Below are positions 13,145 to 63,989 of a DNA stretch of 64,000 nucleotides, piece after piece. The position numbers and the translations under genes are program-made. The stretch lies in sequence record MW749001.1; one strand, 5' to 3'. The notes under the pieces were generated by a model. That model ran no database searches. It saw nothing but the letters and a program-made list of their open reading frames with translations, and was not told the DNA's origin. The first letter of the stretch is position 1. The number at the start of each line of letters is the position of its first letter. Source of the DNA: Escherichia phage vB_EcoM_Kelasse.

Positions 13145-13309
13145 TTACTCTTCTTTTTCTTTAGATTCCTCTTTTTTCTTTTTAGGAATCTGTTCAGGGC
13201 CTTTATTTACTACAGCGCCTGACGTTGTTCCAGTAGAGATATTTTCAGGATTACCACCTGAATCTCCAGCGACCATATCTTCTTTGATAAATTCTTTATA
13301 TGTTTTCAT
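13145..13309 (-). CDS. small protein with capsid-targeting-like N-terminus (54 aa, 61.1 position)
   Basis: Hand-translated MKTYKEFIKEDMVAGDSGG...; GAGG Shine-Dalgarno; Lys/Glu-rich tail. Confidence 0.5.
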   Translation of the reverse strand: MKTYKEFIKEDMVAGDSGGNPENISTGTTSGAVVNKGPEQIPKKKKEESKEKEE

Positions 13310-17820: not shown

Positions 17821-18669
17821 TTAATCAACTGCTATTGGATGAATAGCATTAAACTTATGAAATGCTTCTGATTTTTCTTTACGCGAAACACACATGCGAA
17901 GAACCTTTAATGGCTCGTCTTCTTCACCCAACGATTTTCGTTTTTCAATATTCGATGTTTTCCAACGAGCTTGCTCTGGAAACTCTCTATTGATTTGCTC
18001 AAGCGCTCTATTATGTTTAGAATTACTGCGAATTGAACTACACCCGCCAGGAGCTTGTGCTTTTCCAGATACAACCAGATATTTGAACAGGGCTAAATGC
18101 GGATAACCTTGATTAATTAAATTGAGAAATGCATACATATCTTCGCATAAATCAATTTTTCCATACCCAATTTGTTCTGTCGTAAGTTTTCCGAGGTCAT
18201 ACCATGTATTCGTGAATCCATATGAATTTTCACGATAATTACCCCAAGATGAAGTAATTTTAAAAATAGGTAGACGAGCATGGCCATGATAATACCCGCA
18301 ATCCATGGCATCCTCAACATATTGAATCAATTCATAGAACTGTTCACGAGTCAATTGATTGACTTTATCTACGCAACGACGATCATCTCTTTTTCGCATT
18401 GAACTCATACGAATAGTAGTATCATCGTCAATCATCCAGATTCGTTGACCTGCATACATATCGGTAATTGCTTTACGAGTACCGGCAATTCCGTTTACAT
18501 CATCAGGAATAGTTATAATTTTAGCTCTAGACCCATAAGCGTCATGATAAGCTTTTTCTTCATGTTCACGCACTACAATATGGGGTTCATAATCAGTCGG
18601 AAACATATCAAGGGCAGAAACTGCCCCGACACGCTGATAACTTGGAATTACGAATTGAATCATTTCCAC
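17821..18669 (-). CDS. DxD glycosyltransferase (GT-A like), probable beta-alpha-glucosyltransferase
   Basis: 282 aa; WMIDDD motif; sits at T4 segA/beta-gt position but is not T4 beta-gt. Confidence 0.55.
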   Translation of the reverse strand: MEMIQFVIPSYQRVGAVSALDMFPTDYEPHIVVREHEEKAYHDAYGSRAKIITIPDDVNGIAGTRKAITDMYAGQRIWMIDDDTTIRMSSMRKRDDRRCVDKVNQLTREQFYELIQYVEDAMDCGYYHGHARLPIFKITSSWGNYRENSYGFTNTWYDLGKLTTEQIGYGKIDLCEDMYAFLNLINQGYPHLALFKYLVVSGKAQAPGGCSSIRSNSKHNRALEQINREFPEQARWKTSNIEKRKSLGEEDEPLKVLRMCVSRKEKSEAFHKFNAIHPIAVD

Positions 18670-30029: not shown

Positions 30030-30050
30030 GCTAAAGGGCCGAAGCCCTTT
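30030..30050 (-). terminator. C(UUCG)G tetraloop hairpin downstream of alpha-gt
   Basis: AAGGGC-UUCG-GCCCUU. Confidence 0.5.
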
Positions 30051-31251
30051 ATTTTGTAATAATGTCAAATTGCTCTTTAAAGCAGAAGCTTGAATCTTGA
30101 TGCTGATACAAAAATTCATACGCTTTTTCTCGCTCACGGTCATAAAGAGCTCGGTCAGATGACAGTTCTTTAATACGCTCGAATGTTGATTCCATATCAT
30201 TTTCATCAAACCAAATGATACCGCTATCATGCGAAATTAGCGGAGTATTATCAACACGGAATTTTAAATTTTCGCCAGTAGATTTCCAAAATACCGGAAT
30301 TGTTCCACATGCACCAAGCTCGAGATGAGTATATTCTAAAGAACGTTGTAGATATTTTTTATCCAACTTACTCAACTGATAACCAAAACCGGATTTACTC
30401 ATACGTTCAAGCATTTCGCTATTTACATAACGGTCAAGAATTTGCGTTGGCAAATTAGGAGCAATTTTAATTTGGTCTACTTGATGAAGACGATAATACT
30501 CGTATGGAATTCCTTTTTCTTTAATAGGAATGAACGCTGGAGAACGTTCCAGACCTTCCATAATAGTACTTAGTCCTGCAGGTTTAAGATGTTTTTCATG
30601 AAAATCAAACATCTGATAAAAACCTTTCCATGTAGTCGTACGACCAATCCAACGGTTGATATTCATGTTAATTTCAGAAACATCTTTCCAGTAAGTTGAC
30701 CGAACCTTCGCAATATCCATAGGAGGCTGAAAGTTATATACTGTCGGTGCTTCTTCAATATCATCAAACAGAGAAACAGTTTCTGGATACCATTCTTTCA
30801 TCAGAACTTTATTAAAATCACCATTATCAGAATGGCTAAAAATAACATCAGCTCGACGAACAGTTTCTTCTAATCCCAAATTTCGACGCAAAGAAAGAGA
30901 AGAATGGTCATGCTGATAAACTACAACACGAACCGAAGGTTTAATGTTATCAATAATTTTTTTATAGTTATTAATAGTGTCTTCTTCAACCGAAGTAGCA
31001 GGAACTGAATTGATAATTAGAATATCACAATCATTTACCAGCTTAAGTGTTTTATCATATTCTTTTGCCAATAAAACCGGAATTGAAAATGATTTATAAT
31101 CATGCGCGCAATTACGAGTAAATGATTTATCTTTAGCATAAACCAAAGTTACTTCATGACCATTTTTAATAAACCAATCACGTTGCTCGAGTGAGAATTT
31201 TGTTACACCACAACCTTCAAGACCTCGAGCCATAAAAATACATACTTTCAT
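30049..31251 (-). CDS. a-gt: alpha-glucosyltransferase (hydroxymethylcytosine)
   Basis: 400 aa; recognised as close to T4 alpha-gt. Confidence 0.9.
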   Translation of the reverse strand: MKVCIFMARGLEGCGVTKFSLEQRDWFIKNGHEVTLVYAKDKSFTRNCAHDYKSFSIPVLLAKEYDKTLKLVNDCDILIINSVPATSVEEDTINNYKKIIDNIKPSVRVVVYQHDHSSLSLRRNLGLEETVRRADVIFSHSDNGDFNKVLMKEWYPETVSLFDDIEEAPTVYNFQPPMDIAKVRSTYWKDVSEINMNINRWIGRTTTWKGFYQMFDFHEKHLKPAGLSTIMEGLERSPAFIPIKEKGIPYEYYRLHQVDQIKIAPNLPTQILDRYVNSEMLERMSKSGFGYQLSKLDKKYLQRSLEYTHLELGACGTIPVFWKSTGENLKFRVDNTPLISHDSGIIWFDENDMESTFERIKELSSDRALYDREREKAYEFLYQHQDSSFCFKEQFDIITK

Positions 31252-55862: not shown

Positions 55863-56040
55863 CTAAACGAATAGGTTCATGAATGCCATATCCCTGAACA
55901 GAAATTTCTGTCGTAGGATAAATTCCACTAATATCACCCATGTTCCACGCTTCATTAAATTGCTGTTCGCCTGAATTACTAAACCATTTGGCGAAAGCAT
56001 TTAGCACATCTTTAGAACCTTCAATAATTATCTTTGCCAT
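55819..56040 (-). CDS. hypothetical protein (73 aa)
   Basis: ORF track. Confidence 0.5.
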   Translation of the reverse strand: MAKIIIEGSKDVLNAFAKWFSNSGEQQFNEAWNMGDISGIYPTTEISVQGYGIHEPIRLVEYDLCTGEEVKYD

Positions 56041-56402
56041 TACAAACTCTCAGTAAAGGTACGAGCGATAACGTCGCGCTGCTGTTCCGGAGTCAGAGAG
56101 TTAAAGCGAACTGCATAACCGGATACACGGATGGTCAGCTGCGGATATTTTTCCGGATGCTTAACTGCATCTTCCAGAGTTTCACGACGCAGAACGTTAA
56201 CGTTCAGGTGCTGACCACCTTCAATTTTAACTGTAGGCTGTGGTTCAATTTCAATTTCACGGGCATGCAAACCGTAGAAAATTTCTGGGTCTACAAAAGA
56301 GTCCTCTTTAAAGGTTTTAGAGACAATAATTCGTGCTTGAATACCATCTTCAAAATAAATAGTACCTTTATGTGTGCCTTCAAGAATTTGATATGCTTTC
56401 AT
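56040..56402 (-). CDS. autonomous glycyl radical cofactor GrcA/YfiD-like protein
   Basis: C-terminal [29 protein letters not shown] glycyl-radical domain; that half is visibly GC-richer than its surroundings. Confidence 0.85.
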
Positions 56403-56408
56403 ATAACC

Positions 56409-56789
56409 TCAATTAGAAAATAAATTTATCCAAGATTGTTCTTTAATTAAAAATGGCTCAGAATCATATGCCATTAAACTTTGGGTAATTAGTCCTTTAA
56501 AAGGCCCATCAATAAATTCCATGGTAAAATATGGAATTTTATTCATTAATCTTGCATTAGGAGCAGTACACAAAACTCTGCATCCTTTGAATACGCCTTT
56601 TTGTAATTTGTATTGCTTAGGATAAAATTCGCTCAAGACGTTGTTATTTGCCAAAATTTCAAAATGATTCACCAATTTATTTTTAATAGTTTTTGGCGAA
56701 AAATAAAGATATTCGAAAAGTTGCGTGTCTGTCATCATTGCATTCCGATTATGAAAAACTGTGGACGAGTAATACCACCAATGCAACAC
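56409..56789 (-). CDS. hypothetical protein (126 aa)
   Basis: ORF track. Confidence 0.5.
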   Translation of the reverse strand: MLHWWYYSSTVFHNRNAMMTDTQLFEYLYFSPKTIKNKLVNHFEILANNNVLSEFYPKQYKLQKGVFKGCRVLCTAPNARLMNKIPYFTMEFIDGPFKGLITQSLMAYDSEPFLIKEQSWINLFSN

Positions 56790-57322
56790 TTGCTATTACA
56801 ACAGTAATGTACAGTTTCAATATGAATATTGTAAATTTTATCCATATCAGGAGATTTAACAGGCTCATCAATTATATACAAAATCCGCGAAAGCGATAAA
56901 CCTCTGAACTTGCTTCCTTTATTACCGATAAAACTACGGACAGAATCGGTAAATAAGCGGAATCGAATATCATCGCTAGAATAACGAGAAAATTCTTTTT
57001 TAATGTGGCCCGCAGAAATTTTAGCGTAAGCTGAAGTATTAGAAAGAACAATAACTGTTCCACCATCATACAGCCAATTAGCAGCAAAGTTAGTCACAGC
57101 AGTTGATTTACCGGATTGTCTGCCACCATCTAATCGAAGTGTGCAATACTGCTTGAGTAAGTCTTCAAATGGTGGGATATAATCGTTTTTACAAATTTCT
57201 TCTACTCTAGCATCAGAATGGTGTGTAAAAGCATTCATCAGGGATAGATAAGGACCAGTTAAAAATGTTCTCATTTTATTCTCTCTAAATTTGGGCCATT
57301 CCATGGCGCATGAATTGTCCAT
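56735..57322 (-). CDS. P-loop NTPase (195 aa)
   Basis: Walker A GGRQSGKST, Walker B ILYIIDEP. Confidence 0.55.
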   Translation of the reverse strand: MDNSCAMEWPKFRENKMRTFLTGPYLSLMNAFTHHSDARVEEICKNDYIPPFEDLLKQYCTLRLDGGRQSGKSTAVTNFAANWLYDGGTVIVLSNTSAYAKISAGHIKKEFSRYSSDDIRFRLFTDSVRSFIGNKGSKFRGLSLSRILYIIDEPVKSPDMDKIYNIHIETVHYCCNSKCCIGGITRPQFFIIGMQ

Positions 57323-57427
57323 TTCTGTATTTACCCATTACCGCACTTGGGCTCGACCTTATTACAGGTTGGCGGGAATCCCTCATAGAATCATGAGGTC
57401 CAGCTTGTTCCCATATTTCTTATTTGC

Positions 57428-57901
57428 TTATTTGAATGATTTGACGTACTGAATAGAACCTTTACTATTCACGAAAGCGATTTTACCATTTTTATTATAC
57501 ATGGTAGCAGTACGCTGATAGCCATAAGTTTGTTTACCAGATTGATAACCAACTAATGCGAAATTATCTTCACCCATTTTATTCTGTTTAGCGCGAATAC
57601 GTTCATGACCGTGTGCCATAAGAACCTTAGCATCACCAGTTGAAATTGATCTACGAGTTTTTTCATCTTCAACTGTATTAACAAAGTCGTCAAATGAATC
57701 AAATTTAGCATGGGATTTATTATACAGTTTTCCATCTACTGCATAATTATATCCCTGTACATCCATCTCAACTTCTGTACCATCATCCAATACAGCAGTG
57801 ATTTTTTGACCTTTTTTAAATTTCAAAAGATCAGTAAAAGATTCAGCAATAATTTGAGAATTAATAGCTGCTTCAGTGATAAATTCTTGATATGTTTTCA
57901 T
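57428..57901 (-). CDS. internal-protein-like protein with capsid targeting sequence (157 aa)
   Basis: N-terminus MKTYQEFITEA matches the T4 internal-protein targeting motif. Confidence 0.6.
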   Translation of the reverse strand: MKTYQEFITEAAINSQIIAESFTDLLKFKKGQKITAVLDDGTEVEMDVQGYNYAVDGKLYNKSHAKFDSFDDFVNTVEDEKTRRSISTGDAKVLMAHGHERIRAKQNKMGEDNFALVGYQSGKQTYGYQRTATMYNKNGKIAFVNSKGSIQYVKSFK

Positions 57902-57910
57902 ATGTTTCCT

Positions 57911-58339
57911 TTAAATGTAAATATTTTTGCCGTAATACTTGTACCAGTGTGGCTTCATTAAAATTTTTTCATCGAGTCGTTGTTGACTCAATTTAATAGC
58001 TGATTTGCATGGATTATAATCATTTTTCCATTCTGCTGGAATATCGCTGATGTCAGGAACTTCAGTATCTTTTATACTAAACCCACGTTTTAAGCATTCC
58101 GTTATAATGTCTGATTGACGCTTTCGCAAAAATTCTAACTTATCGTAAAAGAACGTAACATGACCAGAGCCTAAAATAAACTCGGAAGATATTTTAAAAT
58201 CTTTAACCCGCTTACCATTTGCCACATGTTTACGAACTATACCAAAAACACGCGGCAATTCACGATACTCAGCCATAAGATGTTGGTCGGTCAGTTCAGA
58301 AACAAGTGTTAAATTGATACGAGTCATAATTTCCTCCAA
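57911..58339 (-). CDS. denV: endonuclease V (pyrimidine dimer DNA glycosylase) DenV
   Basis: Recognised as T4 DenV; true start probably internal MTRINLTLV. Confidence 0.88.
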
Positions 58340-58385: not shown

Positions 58386-59188
<803 letters not shown>

Positions 59189-59644
59189 TTAAAAGAGGCT
59201 GTTCATTATTCGGTAAAGTGAAGGACCCATCACATATTGCCACTGAGTACGAGGAATAAGAGCAAAAGCATCCATCTCTGGAATCATAACACCATCTTTA
59301 TTTTCAAAATAAGACTCGCAATGGCAATTTCTAAACATCTCATGCTCTACTGGAATCGTATAATAAAACAGCTGTAAGTCTTTATTACTAGAATATTTAA
59401 ATACACCTAGGTCTTCTAGAAGGTCTGGATTATAATTGCTAAAACCGGTCTCTTCTAAGCATTCTCTTCGTGCTGCATCTAGTGCGCTCAAATCAGAATT
59501 TTCTACACGGCCTTTTGGAATATCCCAGCGATGTGCCATCATTCCAGGCTTACGAGAACCAGTAACCCGTCCCATGAATAAATCTTTATCTTCTGTCATA
59601 AAGATAATACCAGCTGATAATGTTTTCATTTTAATTTCCTGCAT
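59189..59644 (-). CDS. nudE: Nudix hydrolase NudE
   Basis: 151 aa; Nudix box region RRECLEETGF. Confidence 0.8.
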   Translation of the reverse strand: MQEIKMKTLSAGIIFMTEDKDLFMGRVTGSRKPGMMAHRWDIPKGRVENSDLSALDAARRECLEETGFSNYNPDLLEDLGVFKYSSNKDLQLFYYTIPVEHEMFRNCHCESYFENKDGVMIPEMDAFALIPRTQWQYVMGPSLYRIMNSLF

Positions 59645-60114
59645 TCGGTGATAAAATTATTTAAATTTTGAGTATATTTCTTTTCATCAAAAATCTTTTG
59701 CTGCCTACGTAAACGCCATGGCATTTCAATGAACGTGTACCATATCCCAGATAATATTGCTGCTGTAAAAATATTAACAAGTATGGTTAAAATAATCCAA
59801 TCTCCCGTTCTGTCTACTGGACTTTCTCCAAAGAAGCAAAATACAAATGATGTCACAGGAAAACTAATAATATACCACAGAATCATAATCTTATCTGTGA
59901 ACCAATCAGTGTTCGTTAATTTAGCGCGACCATTATGAATACACACGAATTTATCATCTGTTGCAGTAGATGGCTTAACTGGTTGATATCCCATTCTAAA
60001 CTCCCTAATCAGCAAATTTTTCATATCTTCGGAACAGCCATTCCAGTCAACTCTATCAACTGAAATGCCATCATCCCCATCATCTAAATCATACCAGCGA
60101 GTTTTTAAAATCAT
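59626..60114 (-). CDS. membrane protein, tandem paralog 1 (162 aa)
   Basis: Two hydrophobic segments; C-terminus NFITECRKLK. Confidence 0.55.
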   Translation of the reverse strand: MILKTRWYDLDDGDDGISVDRVDWNGCSEDMKNLLIREFRMGYQPVKPSTATDDKFVCIHNGRAKLTNTDWFTDKIMILWYIISFPVTSFVFCFFGESPVDRTGDWIILTILVNIFTAAILSGIWYTFIEMPWRLRRQQKIFDEKKYTQNLNNFITECRKLK

Positions 60115-63019: not shown

Positions 63020-63583
63020 TTATTTATCTAGTTTAGTTATTATAGCTTCTGCGGCAGCTTTTAGCTTAGATGCGGTGTTAATACGATTTTTAATTTCAGT
63101 ATACGCATCGCCAAGAACATCAAGGCTATCAGAATAAACACTTACACTATTGCGTTCGCTATTTGAAATAGAACCTTTAGTTTTACGTTCAAAATCGGTG
63201 TACACGTCTTGAAGATCACGGGCTGCCTTCTTTGCATCATCCAATGCATCAAGAGCTTTATTCAAAGCATTAACATATTTTTTAGTGTCGAACATATTCT
63301 TAGAAATTTTAACAGGTGCACGTTCAGGAGTAGCTAAGGCAGATTTAGGAACCTGAGCGCCAGATGCCAATTTCTTAGAAATTTTGAAAAATGCTTTATT
63401 GAAACTATTTTCTTGACTCATCGTAAAAGAACTATTATCAATGTTATACATTTCAATAGCTTTAGCTTTCCACTTAAGAAAATCGCCACGGTCTTTTGGG
63501 TCCAAGTGGAAGAATACTTTAGTAAGATCTGCTTCAGATGGTAATTTTGCTGCTTCGGTTAAAAATTCGGCGTAGGTTTTCAT
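63020..63583 (-). CDS. internal-protein-like protein with capsid targeting sequence (187 aa)
   Basis: N-terminus MKTYAEFLTEA; hairpin downstream. Confidence 0.6.
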   Translation of the reverse strand: MKTYAEFLTEAAKLPSEADLTKVFFHLDPKDRGDFLKWKAKAIEMYNIDNSSFTMSQENSFNKAFFKISKKLASGAQVPKSALATPERAPVKISKNMFDTKKYVNALNKALDALDDAKKAARDLQDVYTDFERKTKGSISNSERNSVSVYSDSLDVLGDAYTEIKNRINTASKLKAAAEAIITKLDK

Positions 63584-63701: not shown

Positions 63702-63989
63702 TTATTTAATTTGCTTAGCAGACCAAATGCGGTCTTTGATAATTTTTTGGATGTCTTCAACATACTCAAGAGAGTGAACATGTGGGTTATCTTTGAAACT
63801 ATAAGCACGAGCTAGCTTTTGGCCTTCAGTTTTGATTACTAAAAGCTCTTTAAGGATAGCTTCATATTTGGAGATAATTCCTTTAACAATATTTTTCTCT
63901 TGTGCGACTTTAGGATCTGCTTTAGGAGCAGGTTTACCAGAAGCCTTTGCAAAAGCAGCGCCAGTAGCAACTAAACTTTTCCAGGCCAT
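63702..63989 (-). CDS. hypothetical basic protein (95 aa)
   Basis: ORF track; hairpin downstream. Confidence 0.5.
   Translation of the reverse strand: MAWKSLVATGAAFAKASGKPAPKADPKVAQEKNIVKGIISKYEAILKELLVIKTEGQKLARAYSFKDNPHVHSLEYVEDIQKIIKDRIWSAKQIK

Follow-up and report, generated by a model that had tools for sequence, protein, structure and literature searches.

The gene between denV and vs.8 of Escherichia phage vB_EcoM_Kelasse is ipIV, encoding an internal protein with a T4-type capsid targeting sequence

The DNA analysed here, referred to as the window, is a stretch of 64,000 nucleotides from Escherichia phage vB_EcoM_Kelasse (sequence record MW749001.1). The minus strand of the window carries an ATG-started open reading frame of 157 codons plus a TAA stop, the translation of which begins MKTYQEFITEAAINSQ, with MKTYQEFITEA as its first 11 residues. 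The start codon lies 9 nt past the denV stop codon (57911–57913). Downstream of the gene are homologues of vs.8, vs.7, and vs.6 (vs.6 encoding a GrcA-like glycyl-radical protein), followed by vs.5 to vs.3 and regB, so that the preliminary description had correctly placed the gene between the regB block and denV, leaving its strand unstated. The features of the locus are collected in Table 1. Weak P-loop/terminase-large-subunit N-terminal matches were obtained for the neighboring vs.8-like protein (56735–57322, minus strand; PHROG 2, E=6.5e-6; Pfam Terminase_6N, E=0.024), the counterpart of which in Klebsiella phage ValerieMcCarty04 is annotated as “putative terminase large subunit.”

Table 1. 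Features of the ipIV locus in the Kelasse window and the evidence for each
Feature	Coordinates	Strand	Evidence
ipIV (Ip4) coding sequence, 157 aa	57428..57901	-	ORF list, Kha5h identity, DUF7412, PHROG 3155, Q38388
Capsid targeting sequence (CTS)/propeptide MKTYQEFITE, codons 1–10; predicted gp21 cut ITE10 / A11	57872..57901	-	T4 IPII/IPIII identity, L/I-X-E rule, orthologue peptides
Predicted mature Ip4*, residues 11–157, 147 aa, ~16.5 kDa, pI ~9.1	57431..57871	-	composition, AF2 model
Second L/I-X-E-like motif, I18-A19-E20 then S21	57842..57850	-	motif scan, alignment
Shine-Dalgarno AAGGAAA, 3 nt 5' of the ipIV ATG, overlapping the last denV stop base	57905..57911	-	sequence
Leader + CTS cassette, 59 nt (RBS, ATG, first 10 codons), likely recombination joint	57870..57928	-	blastn, alignment
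denV allele (pyrimidine-dimer glycosylase) between two ip genes, 76% DNA identity to T4 denV	57911..58339	-	Pfam Pyr_excise, blastn
93-aa internal protein (IP) gene, same plastic IP locus	58386..58667	-	PHROG 3499 “internal head protein,” E=1.4e-46; Kha5h annotation “internal head protein”
Two T4-type late-promoter motifs (TATAAATA), just upstream of e	59166..59186	-	pattern search

The gene is the known ipIV, encoding Ip4, of the T2-type T-even phages rather than a new gene, because it is already named in the K3, T2, and Kha5h records and filed in curated families. A 1.1-kb stretch around it is 100% identical in DNA to Enterobacteria phage Kha5h, where the corresponding gene is annotated as ipIV, “internal virion protein.” By tblastn, the protein is 99.4% identical to T2 ipIV (“IpIV internal head protein”), and homologues in AR1 and ime09 are annotated as “Ip4.” Pfam DUF7412 (PF24183) matches the full length of the protein (E=1.3e-95; 318 bits versus a cutoff of 27) over positions 1–157 of the 158 in the profile, as does PHROG 3155, “internal virion protein” (E=1.1e-101), and the sole significant match in the viral structure library BFVD is UniProt Q38388, “Ip4 [Enterobacteria phage K3],” at 98% identity. 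Homologues were found by tblastn in 470 phage records, drawn from T4-like phages of Escherichia, Klebsiella, Salmonella, and Serratia; identity is at least 95% in about 306 of these records and 67 to 71% between genera. The name Ip4 reportedly originates with Repoila and colleagues in 1994, an attribution based on the UniProt entry name and citing papers.

A literature search combining “Ip4” or “ipIV” with phage returned nothing except a T2 preprint on contingency loci, in which ipIV served as a control locus and zero variation was seen at its repeat. In Kelasse, two A6 runs are present within ipIV codons 28 to 34 (AAA AAA GGT CAA AAA A; 57802–57817, minus strand). A 39-residue database protein (P0020, MKTYQEFITEAAINSQIIAESFTDLLKFKKRSKNHCCIG) is the exact product of a +1 A insertion in the first of these runs and could reflect either an error in sequencing or a frameshift allele that occurs naturally.

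By sequence comparison, Kelasse is a mosaic Tequatrovirus, since the best identity of the window to database phages over 24 kb is only 96 to 97%. Positions 56000–57416 are 94% identical to T4 vs.6–vs.8, reaching the T4 denV stop, and positions 58669–59700 are 94% identical to T4 e and nudE (both by blastn). Between these T4-like flanks, where the gene order of T4 is e, ipIII, ipII, denV, vs.8, Kelasse differs in carrying the 93-aa IP gene, the diverged denV allele, and ipIV, the last of which is absent from the T4 record. The product of the 93-aa IP gene is acidic (pI 5.5), with three L-X-E motifs among its 30 N-terminal residues, and the gene starts with an ATG that overlaps with the end of e, which encodes lysozyme. 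T-even genomes have two plastic IP loci, and the position of ipIV between e and vs.8 is one of them. In T2, which has neither denV nor the 93-aa IP gene, ipIV, the sole IP gene of the T2 e locus, comes next after e across an 87-nt intergenic gap with no gene between, and in the Klebsiella Jiaodavirus phages KP182 and ValerieMcCarty04 and the Salmonella Gelderlandvirus Melville, the gene for an Ip4 of 67 to 71% identity adjoins the lysozyme gene or overlaps with it, and a further IP gene comes next. Because Ip4 follows the lysozyme gene in T2, Jiaodavirus, and Gelderlandvirus alike, it has, as judged from gene order, the widest conservation of any gene at the e-proximal IP locus in the genomes examined, extending over three genera, and is probably the ancestral occupant. 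The preliminary description had called the gene an additional internal-protein-like gene. Its reading as an IP gene holds, and the notion of an extra or unrecognized gene does not, given that ipIV is named and widespread and that it is T4 that lacks it.

The DNA around the ipIV start bears signs of exchange. The 59-nt leader and CTS cassette aligns by blastn with the 5' regions of T4 ipII and T4 ipIII at 95% and 94% identity, respectively; in the alignment with T4 ipII, 27 nt upstream and the first 20 coding nt are identical. The leader of T2 ipIV, in turn, matches that of T4 ipIII. Leader and CTS DNA shared across ip genes in this way fits an exchange of IP bodies by recombination within the cassette, as Repoila and colleagues are said to have proposed in 1994. 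The last 18 nt of Kelasse denV (AAAAATATTTACATTTAA, encoding KNIYI-stop) together with the 9-nt spacer correspond exactly to the noncoding leader 5' of T4 ipII (57911–57937, minus strand, versus T4 L002 5720–5746). Given this identity, the leader of T4 ipII may be what is left of a denV 3' end that an earlier denV–ip cassette recombination brought with it.

In translations of the T4 record, IPII and IPIII both begin MKTYQEFIAEA, to which Ip4 is identical at 10 of 11 residues; over the 10-residue CTS itself, MKTYQEFITE agrees with the T4 sequence at all positions but one. The first 10 residues of IPIII suffice for packaging, as reviewed from the experiments of Mullaney and Black, residues 4 and 7 driving targeting and residues 8 and 10 processing, and the prohead protease gp21 cleaves after L/I-X-E (PMC9026906). 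Ip4 retains the targeting residues Y4 and F7 and the processing residues I8 and E10, and I8-T9-E10 followed by A11 forms a gp21 cleavage motif in which E10 is invariant among the close family in the alignment. The number of occurrences of the exact 11-mer MKTYQEFITEA expected in a six-frame translation of the window is ~1e-10, and the loose motif MK[TSQ][YF]x[ED]F, expected 0.013 times, was observed 4 times. The preliminary description was thus right to read this start as a T4-type CTS. Upon cleavage, the predicted processed N-terminal peptide, starting from A11, is AAINSQIIAESFTDLLK, and peptides marking the unprocessed N terminus are TYQEFITEAAINSQIIAESFTDLLK and TYQEFITEAAINSQ.... Distant relatives of 34 to 36% identity, recovered by an exhaustive profile search, have CTS-like starts of their own (MNFxxFLNE/S: MNFEQFLNES and MNFKDFLNES), and signal and body are therefore conserved together. 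One of these relatives, P0015, has no informative neighbors on its 2.8-kb contig.

Other CTS-like starts occur in the window. A 187-aa ORF (63020–63583, minus strand) begins MKTYAEFLTEAAKL, a good CTS with an L-T-E/A cleavage motif, and is present in 164 T-even records, 12 of which were sampled and give it as “hypothetical protein” or leave it unannotated (PHROG 2280, unknown function). Immediately upstream, a 95-aa ORF (63702–63989, minus strand) matches the C-terminal part of PHROG 2280 and has no CTS; from their sequences, the two look like an unannotated candidate internal protein and a paralogous fragment. As far as annotation goes, this finding has more novelty than Ip4. Gene 61.1 (13145–13309, minus strand), the immediate upstream neighbor of primase gene 61, encodes a 54-aa product that begins MKTYKEFIKED, a CTS-like start with an I-K-E motif followed by Asp; conservation of this gene extends to 1228 T4-like records, among them those of Acinetobacter and Aeromonas phages, and its annotation is that of a hypothetical protein only.

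Packaging and processing can be followed in published virion data. CsCl-purified virions of Klebsiella phages ValerieMcCarty03 and ValerieMcCarty04 were subjected to LC-MS/MS (PMC13119998), and Table 3 of that study lists “gp127/119 Internal virion protein” with 66/66 peptide-spectrum matches, i.e., 66 per phage. By tblastn, VMC04_119 (WKM80649.1; the counterpart of VMC03 gp127) is a full-length Ip4 orthologue of 69% identity, the gene for which immediately follows that for lysozyme. Of the 66 peptide rows for the orthologue (PMC13119998, Supplementary Data S2), not one lies within residues 1 to 10. Two rows, E.SRLATVGVMTESVGSNLLK.F, begin at S11, right after L-N-E, in a data set that also has other semi-tryptic peptides, and one row, R.LATVGVMTESVGSNLLK.F, begins at L13; the flank.peptide.flank format of these rows was confirmed by L.MDIFGMLR.I at the lysozyme N terminus. 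Virion peptides starting at residue 11 therefore demonstrate packaging and CTS removal for the Ip4 family, via this orthologue, and by analogy the capsid of Kelasse very probably contains Ip4 as well. The virion mass spectrometry suggested in the preliminary description as a check for the processed protein is thus already available for a 69%-identical orthologue, which is abundant and has its N terminus at residue 11. The HIDEN-SEQ supplements contain no row labeled Ip4. A second gp21 cut after E20, which is likewise invariant in close family members, was considered as the main site on account of this conservation. However, both LATVGVMTESVGSNLLK and SRLATVGVMTESVGSNLLK cross the second conserved Glu of the orthologue, equivalent to Ip4 E20, uncut, and IAE20/S was rejected as the main cut for this reason.

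An AlphaFold (AF2) model of Ip4 reached a pLDDT of 84 and a pTM of 0.78; pLDDT was 54 with 13 close homologues and rose to 84 after addition of three relatives of 34 to 36% identity. In the model, residues 1 to 20 form low-confidence helices, residues 11 to 27 a flexible linker, and residues ~28 to 157 a compact alpha/beta core of two strands, three helices, and four strands. A Foldseek search of the model against the PDB returned nothing at E<0.001, and the sequence gave chance-level matches only in the PDB and NCBIfam, so the predicted fold appears to be without a relative among solved structures. Against other IP PHROGs, matches were limited to about residues 1–14, 1–21, and 1–66 (E ~1e-3 to 1e-2), and beyond the CTS no sequence or fold homology to the GmrSD inhibitors Ip1, Ip2, and Ip3 was found. 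Invariance across the wider family is largely confined to Gly, Lys, Asn, and hydrophobic residues. Two His residues are invariant in close relatives and lost in distant ones, which is evidence against a conserved catalytic site, and an enzymatic role suggested by these residues was rejected.

With respect to expression, the TATAAATA pair upstream of e constitutes the only perfect late-promoter motifs in the region, with none directly 5' of ipIV. These motifs are the probable source of late transcripts that would run via e, the 93-aa IP gene, and denV into ipIV, and no terminator-like minus-strand site was found between them and ipIV; late expression of ipIV by read-through is plausible. A hairpin, CCTCAT-GATTCT-ATGAGG (57381–57398, minus strand), lies 30 nt past the ipIV stop in sequence common to the T4 denV–vs.8 spacer, and because no U-run follows, it is not a canonical intrinsic terminator.

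The function of T4 internal proteins provides the background for the remaining part of the preliminary description, which had presented the gene as a candidate injected anti-defense factor. Each of T4 Ip1, Ip2, and Ip3 is an inhibitor of a single, specific type IV restriction enzyme of the GmrSD type, the targets being GmrSD-CT596 for IPI*, GmrSD-ECOR21 for IPII, and GmrSD-ECOR17 for IPIII (PMC12373910). Bas37_0260, another CTS protein at the ipI locus, inhibits McrBC, an activity identified by knockout (bioRxiv 10.1101/2025.11.20.689424), and IP targets therefore reach beyond GmrSD. Silas et al. tested ten ip genes, including ip4–10, against the five active GmrSD systems additional to CT596, ECOR21, and ECOR17 and “identified no new inhibitory interactions” (PMC12373910, main text and Suppl. 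Fig. 9); over the panel of eight active systems, ip4–10 gave no reproducible inhibition, the “ip4” construct being matched to Ip4 by name. T2, a carrier of ipIV, is still restricted by GmrSD-ECOR17 and GmrSD-ECOR21 (PMC12373910). In the form given, the anti-defense claim is therefore not sustained, as it argues from analogy and both of these results run against it.

Kelasse encodes a dCMP-hydroxymethylase-like protein and an alpha-glucosyltransferase (alpha-gt gene, 30049–31251; E=1e-236). A 280-aa TAGT-family glycosyltransferase (17821–18663, minus strand) occupies the T4 beta-gt position between uvsX and gene 42 and fits a T2/T6-type second glucosylation (gentiobiosyl-hmC) rather than T4 beta-gt. 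With the hydroxymethylase-like, alpha-gt, and TAGT genes in place, Kelasse DNA very probably contains T2-like glucosylated hmC, a substrate of type IV enzymes. Because of the Ip1–3 and Bas37_0260 precedents and the predicted glucosyl-hmC DNA, an anti-restriction role is a plausible best guess for Ip4. Conservation at the level found (at least 95% in about 306 records) is atypical of an arms-race gene and therefore keeps alive either a structural, DNA-condensing role or an Enterobacteriaceae-wide target. That Ip4 neutralizes a non-GmrSD defense or host factor conserved across Enterobacteriaceae, using a fold without known relatives, is a rather unlikely proposition; if true, Ip4 and its target would form a new class of injected-inhibitor/defense pair.

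The best overall explanation, considered somewhat probable as a whole, is that Ip4 is packaged by its CTS, processed by gp21, injected, and blocks a host defense. By this account ipIV, having arrived by cassette exchange at the shared leader and CTS of the e-to-vs.8 IP locus, would be transcribed late by read-through from the two e late promoters and possibly earlier with denV. MKTYQEFITE would then dock Ip4 on the scaffolding core during prohead assembly, in line with T4 IPIII genetics, and gp21 would cut after I-T-E10, leaving many copies of a basic ~16.5-kDa protein in the head alongside the DNA, as the orthologue mass spectrometry suggests for Kelasse. CTS targeting and gp21 processing are held with high confidence. 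Ejection into the cell along with the DNA, by analogy to T4 IPI–III, is likely. Finally, and speculatively, Ip4 would bind and block a defense attacking the incoming glucosyl-hmC DNA, the target most likely being a modification-dependent (type IV) nuclease outside the tested GmrSD classes; this last step is put forward tentatively, with some doubt that a host defense against glucosyl-hmC DNA is what Ip4 blocks.

Several of the same observations would also be expected of a mainly structural protein, i.e., a basic head protein that neutralizes DNA charge or aids packaging or ejection and has no specific host target. Mature Ip4 is predicted to be basic (pI ~9.1), as are IPII and IPIII; virions contain the orthologue in abundance; no inhibition was seen in the GmrSD tests; internal-protein Lys residues contact DNA phosphates according to a review; and the high conservation, with synteny by e in Tequatrovirus, Jiaodavirus, and Gelderlandvirus, is more reminiscent of a housekeeping gene than of an arms race. 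A structural role is nonetheless judged unlikely, as T4 does entirely without Ip4 and the locus is freely exchanged between phages, each of the three T4 IPs proved to be a specific inhibitor after having long been regarded as structural (PMC12373910), and the modeled fold is compact and globular rather than histone-like or a disordered polycation.

An injected effector of host takeover, acting as an enzyme or modulator on core host machinery rather than on defense, has a precedent in the Alt ADP-ribosyltransferase, a packaged enzyme processed by gp21 (PMC9026906), and the predicted injection with DNA together with conservation over several host genera would suit a conserved target of this kind. 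It is considered improbable, given that no enzyme-family match was obtained in Pfam, NCBIfam, or the PDB, that the His residues of the close family are lost in distant relatives, and that the invariant residues include no recognizable catalytic set. Alternatively, the CTS might be a relic of recombination on a protein that is unpackaged and acts only in the infected cell, co-expressed with denV: the leader and CTS DNA is a shared recombination cassette, and ipIV lies 9 nt after denV, an early/middle-type gene, and has no late promoter of its own. This is very hard to reconcile with an orthologue found in quantity, and without its CTS, in purified virions, or with a CTS kept at the protein level in relatives of 34 to 36% identity with diverged DNA, and it is given hardly any credence. 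The packaged, injected, defense-blocking protein thus stays the preferred reading. The prevailing view in the field is that CTS proteins serve as injected factors against restriction. Ip4 is an orphan after the direct GmrSD screen, and its breadth across genera makes it a reasonable target for deorphanization, for which a confident model, predicting no known fold, now exists.

Relative to known systems, the Ip4/ipIV of K3, T2, Kha5h, AR1, and ime09 is the same gene, encoding a 98 to 100% identical protein at the same e-to-vs locus. The arrangement differs from that of T2 in the 93-aa IP gene and diverged denV interposed between e and ipIV, where T2 has its 87-nt gap, and from that of Jiaodavirus and Gelderlandvirus, where Ip4 abuts or overlaps e, in the separation of ipIV from e by these two genes. 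T4 IPII and IPIII resemble Ip4 in their near-identical CTS and nucleotide leader, their e-to-vs.8 locus, their basic character, and gp21 processing after residue 10, which for Ip4 is predicted. In contrast to Ip4, they have known GmrSD targets, and they show no sequence similarity to it past about residue 14 to 21. T4 IPI*, the functional paradigm of the injected internal-protein class, is likewise a small CTS-bearing, gp21-processed protein with a compact fold lacking close structural relatives and is co-injected with DNA; IPI differs in its locus adjoining 57B, its longer, 19-residue propeptide, its unrelated sequence, and its inhibition of GmrSD-CT596. Bas37_0260 shares with Ip4 the plan of an N-terminal packaging signal on an otherwise unrelated body, at a different locus and with a different sequence.
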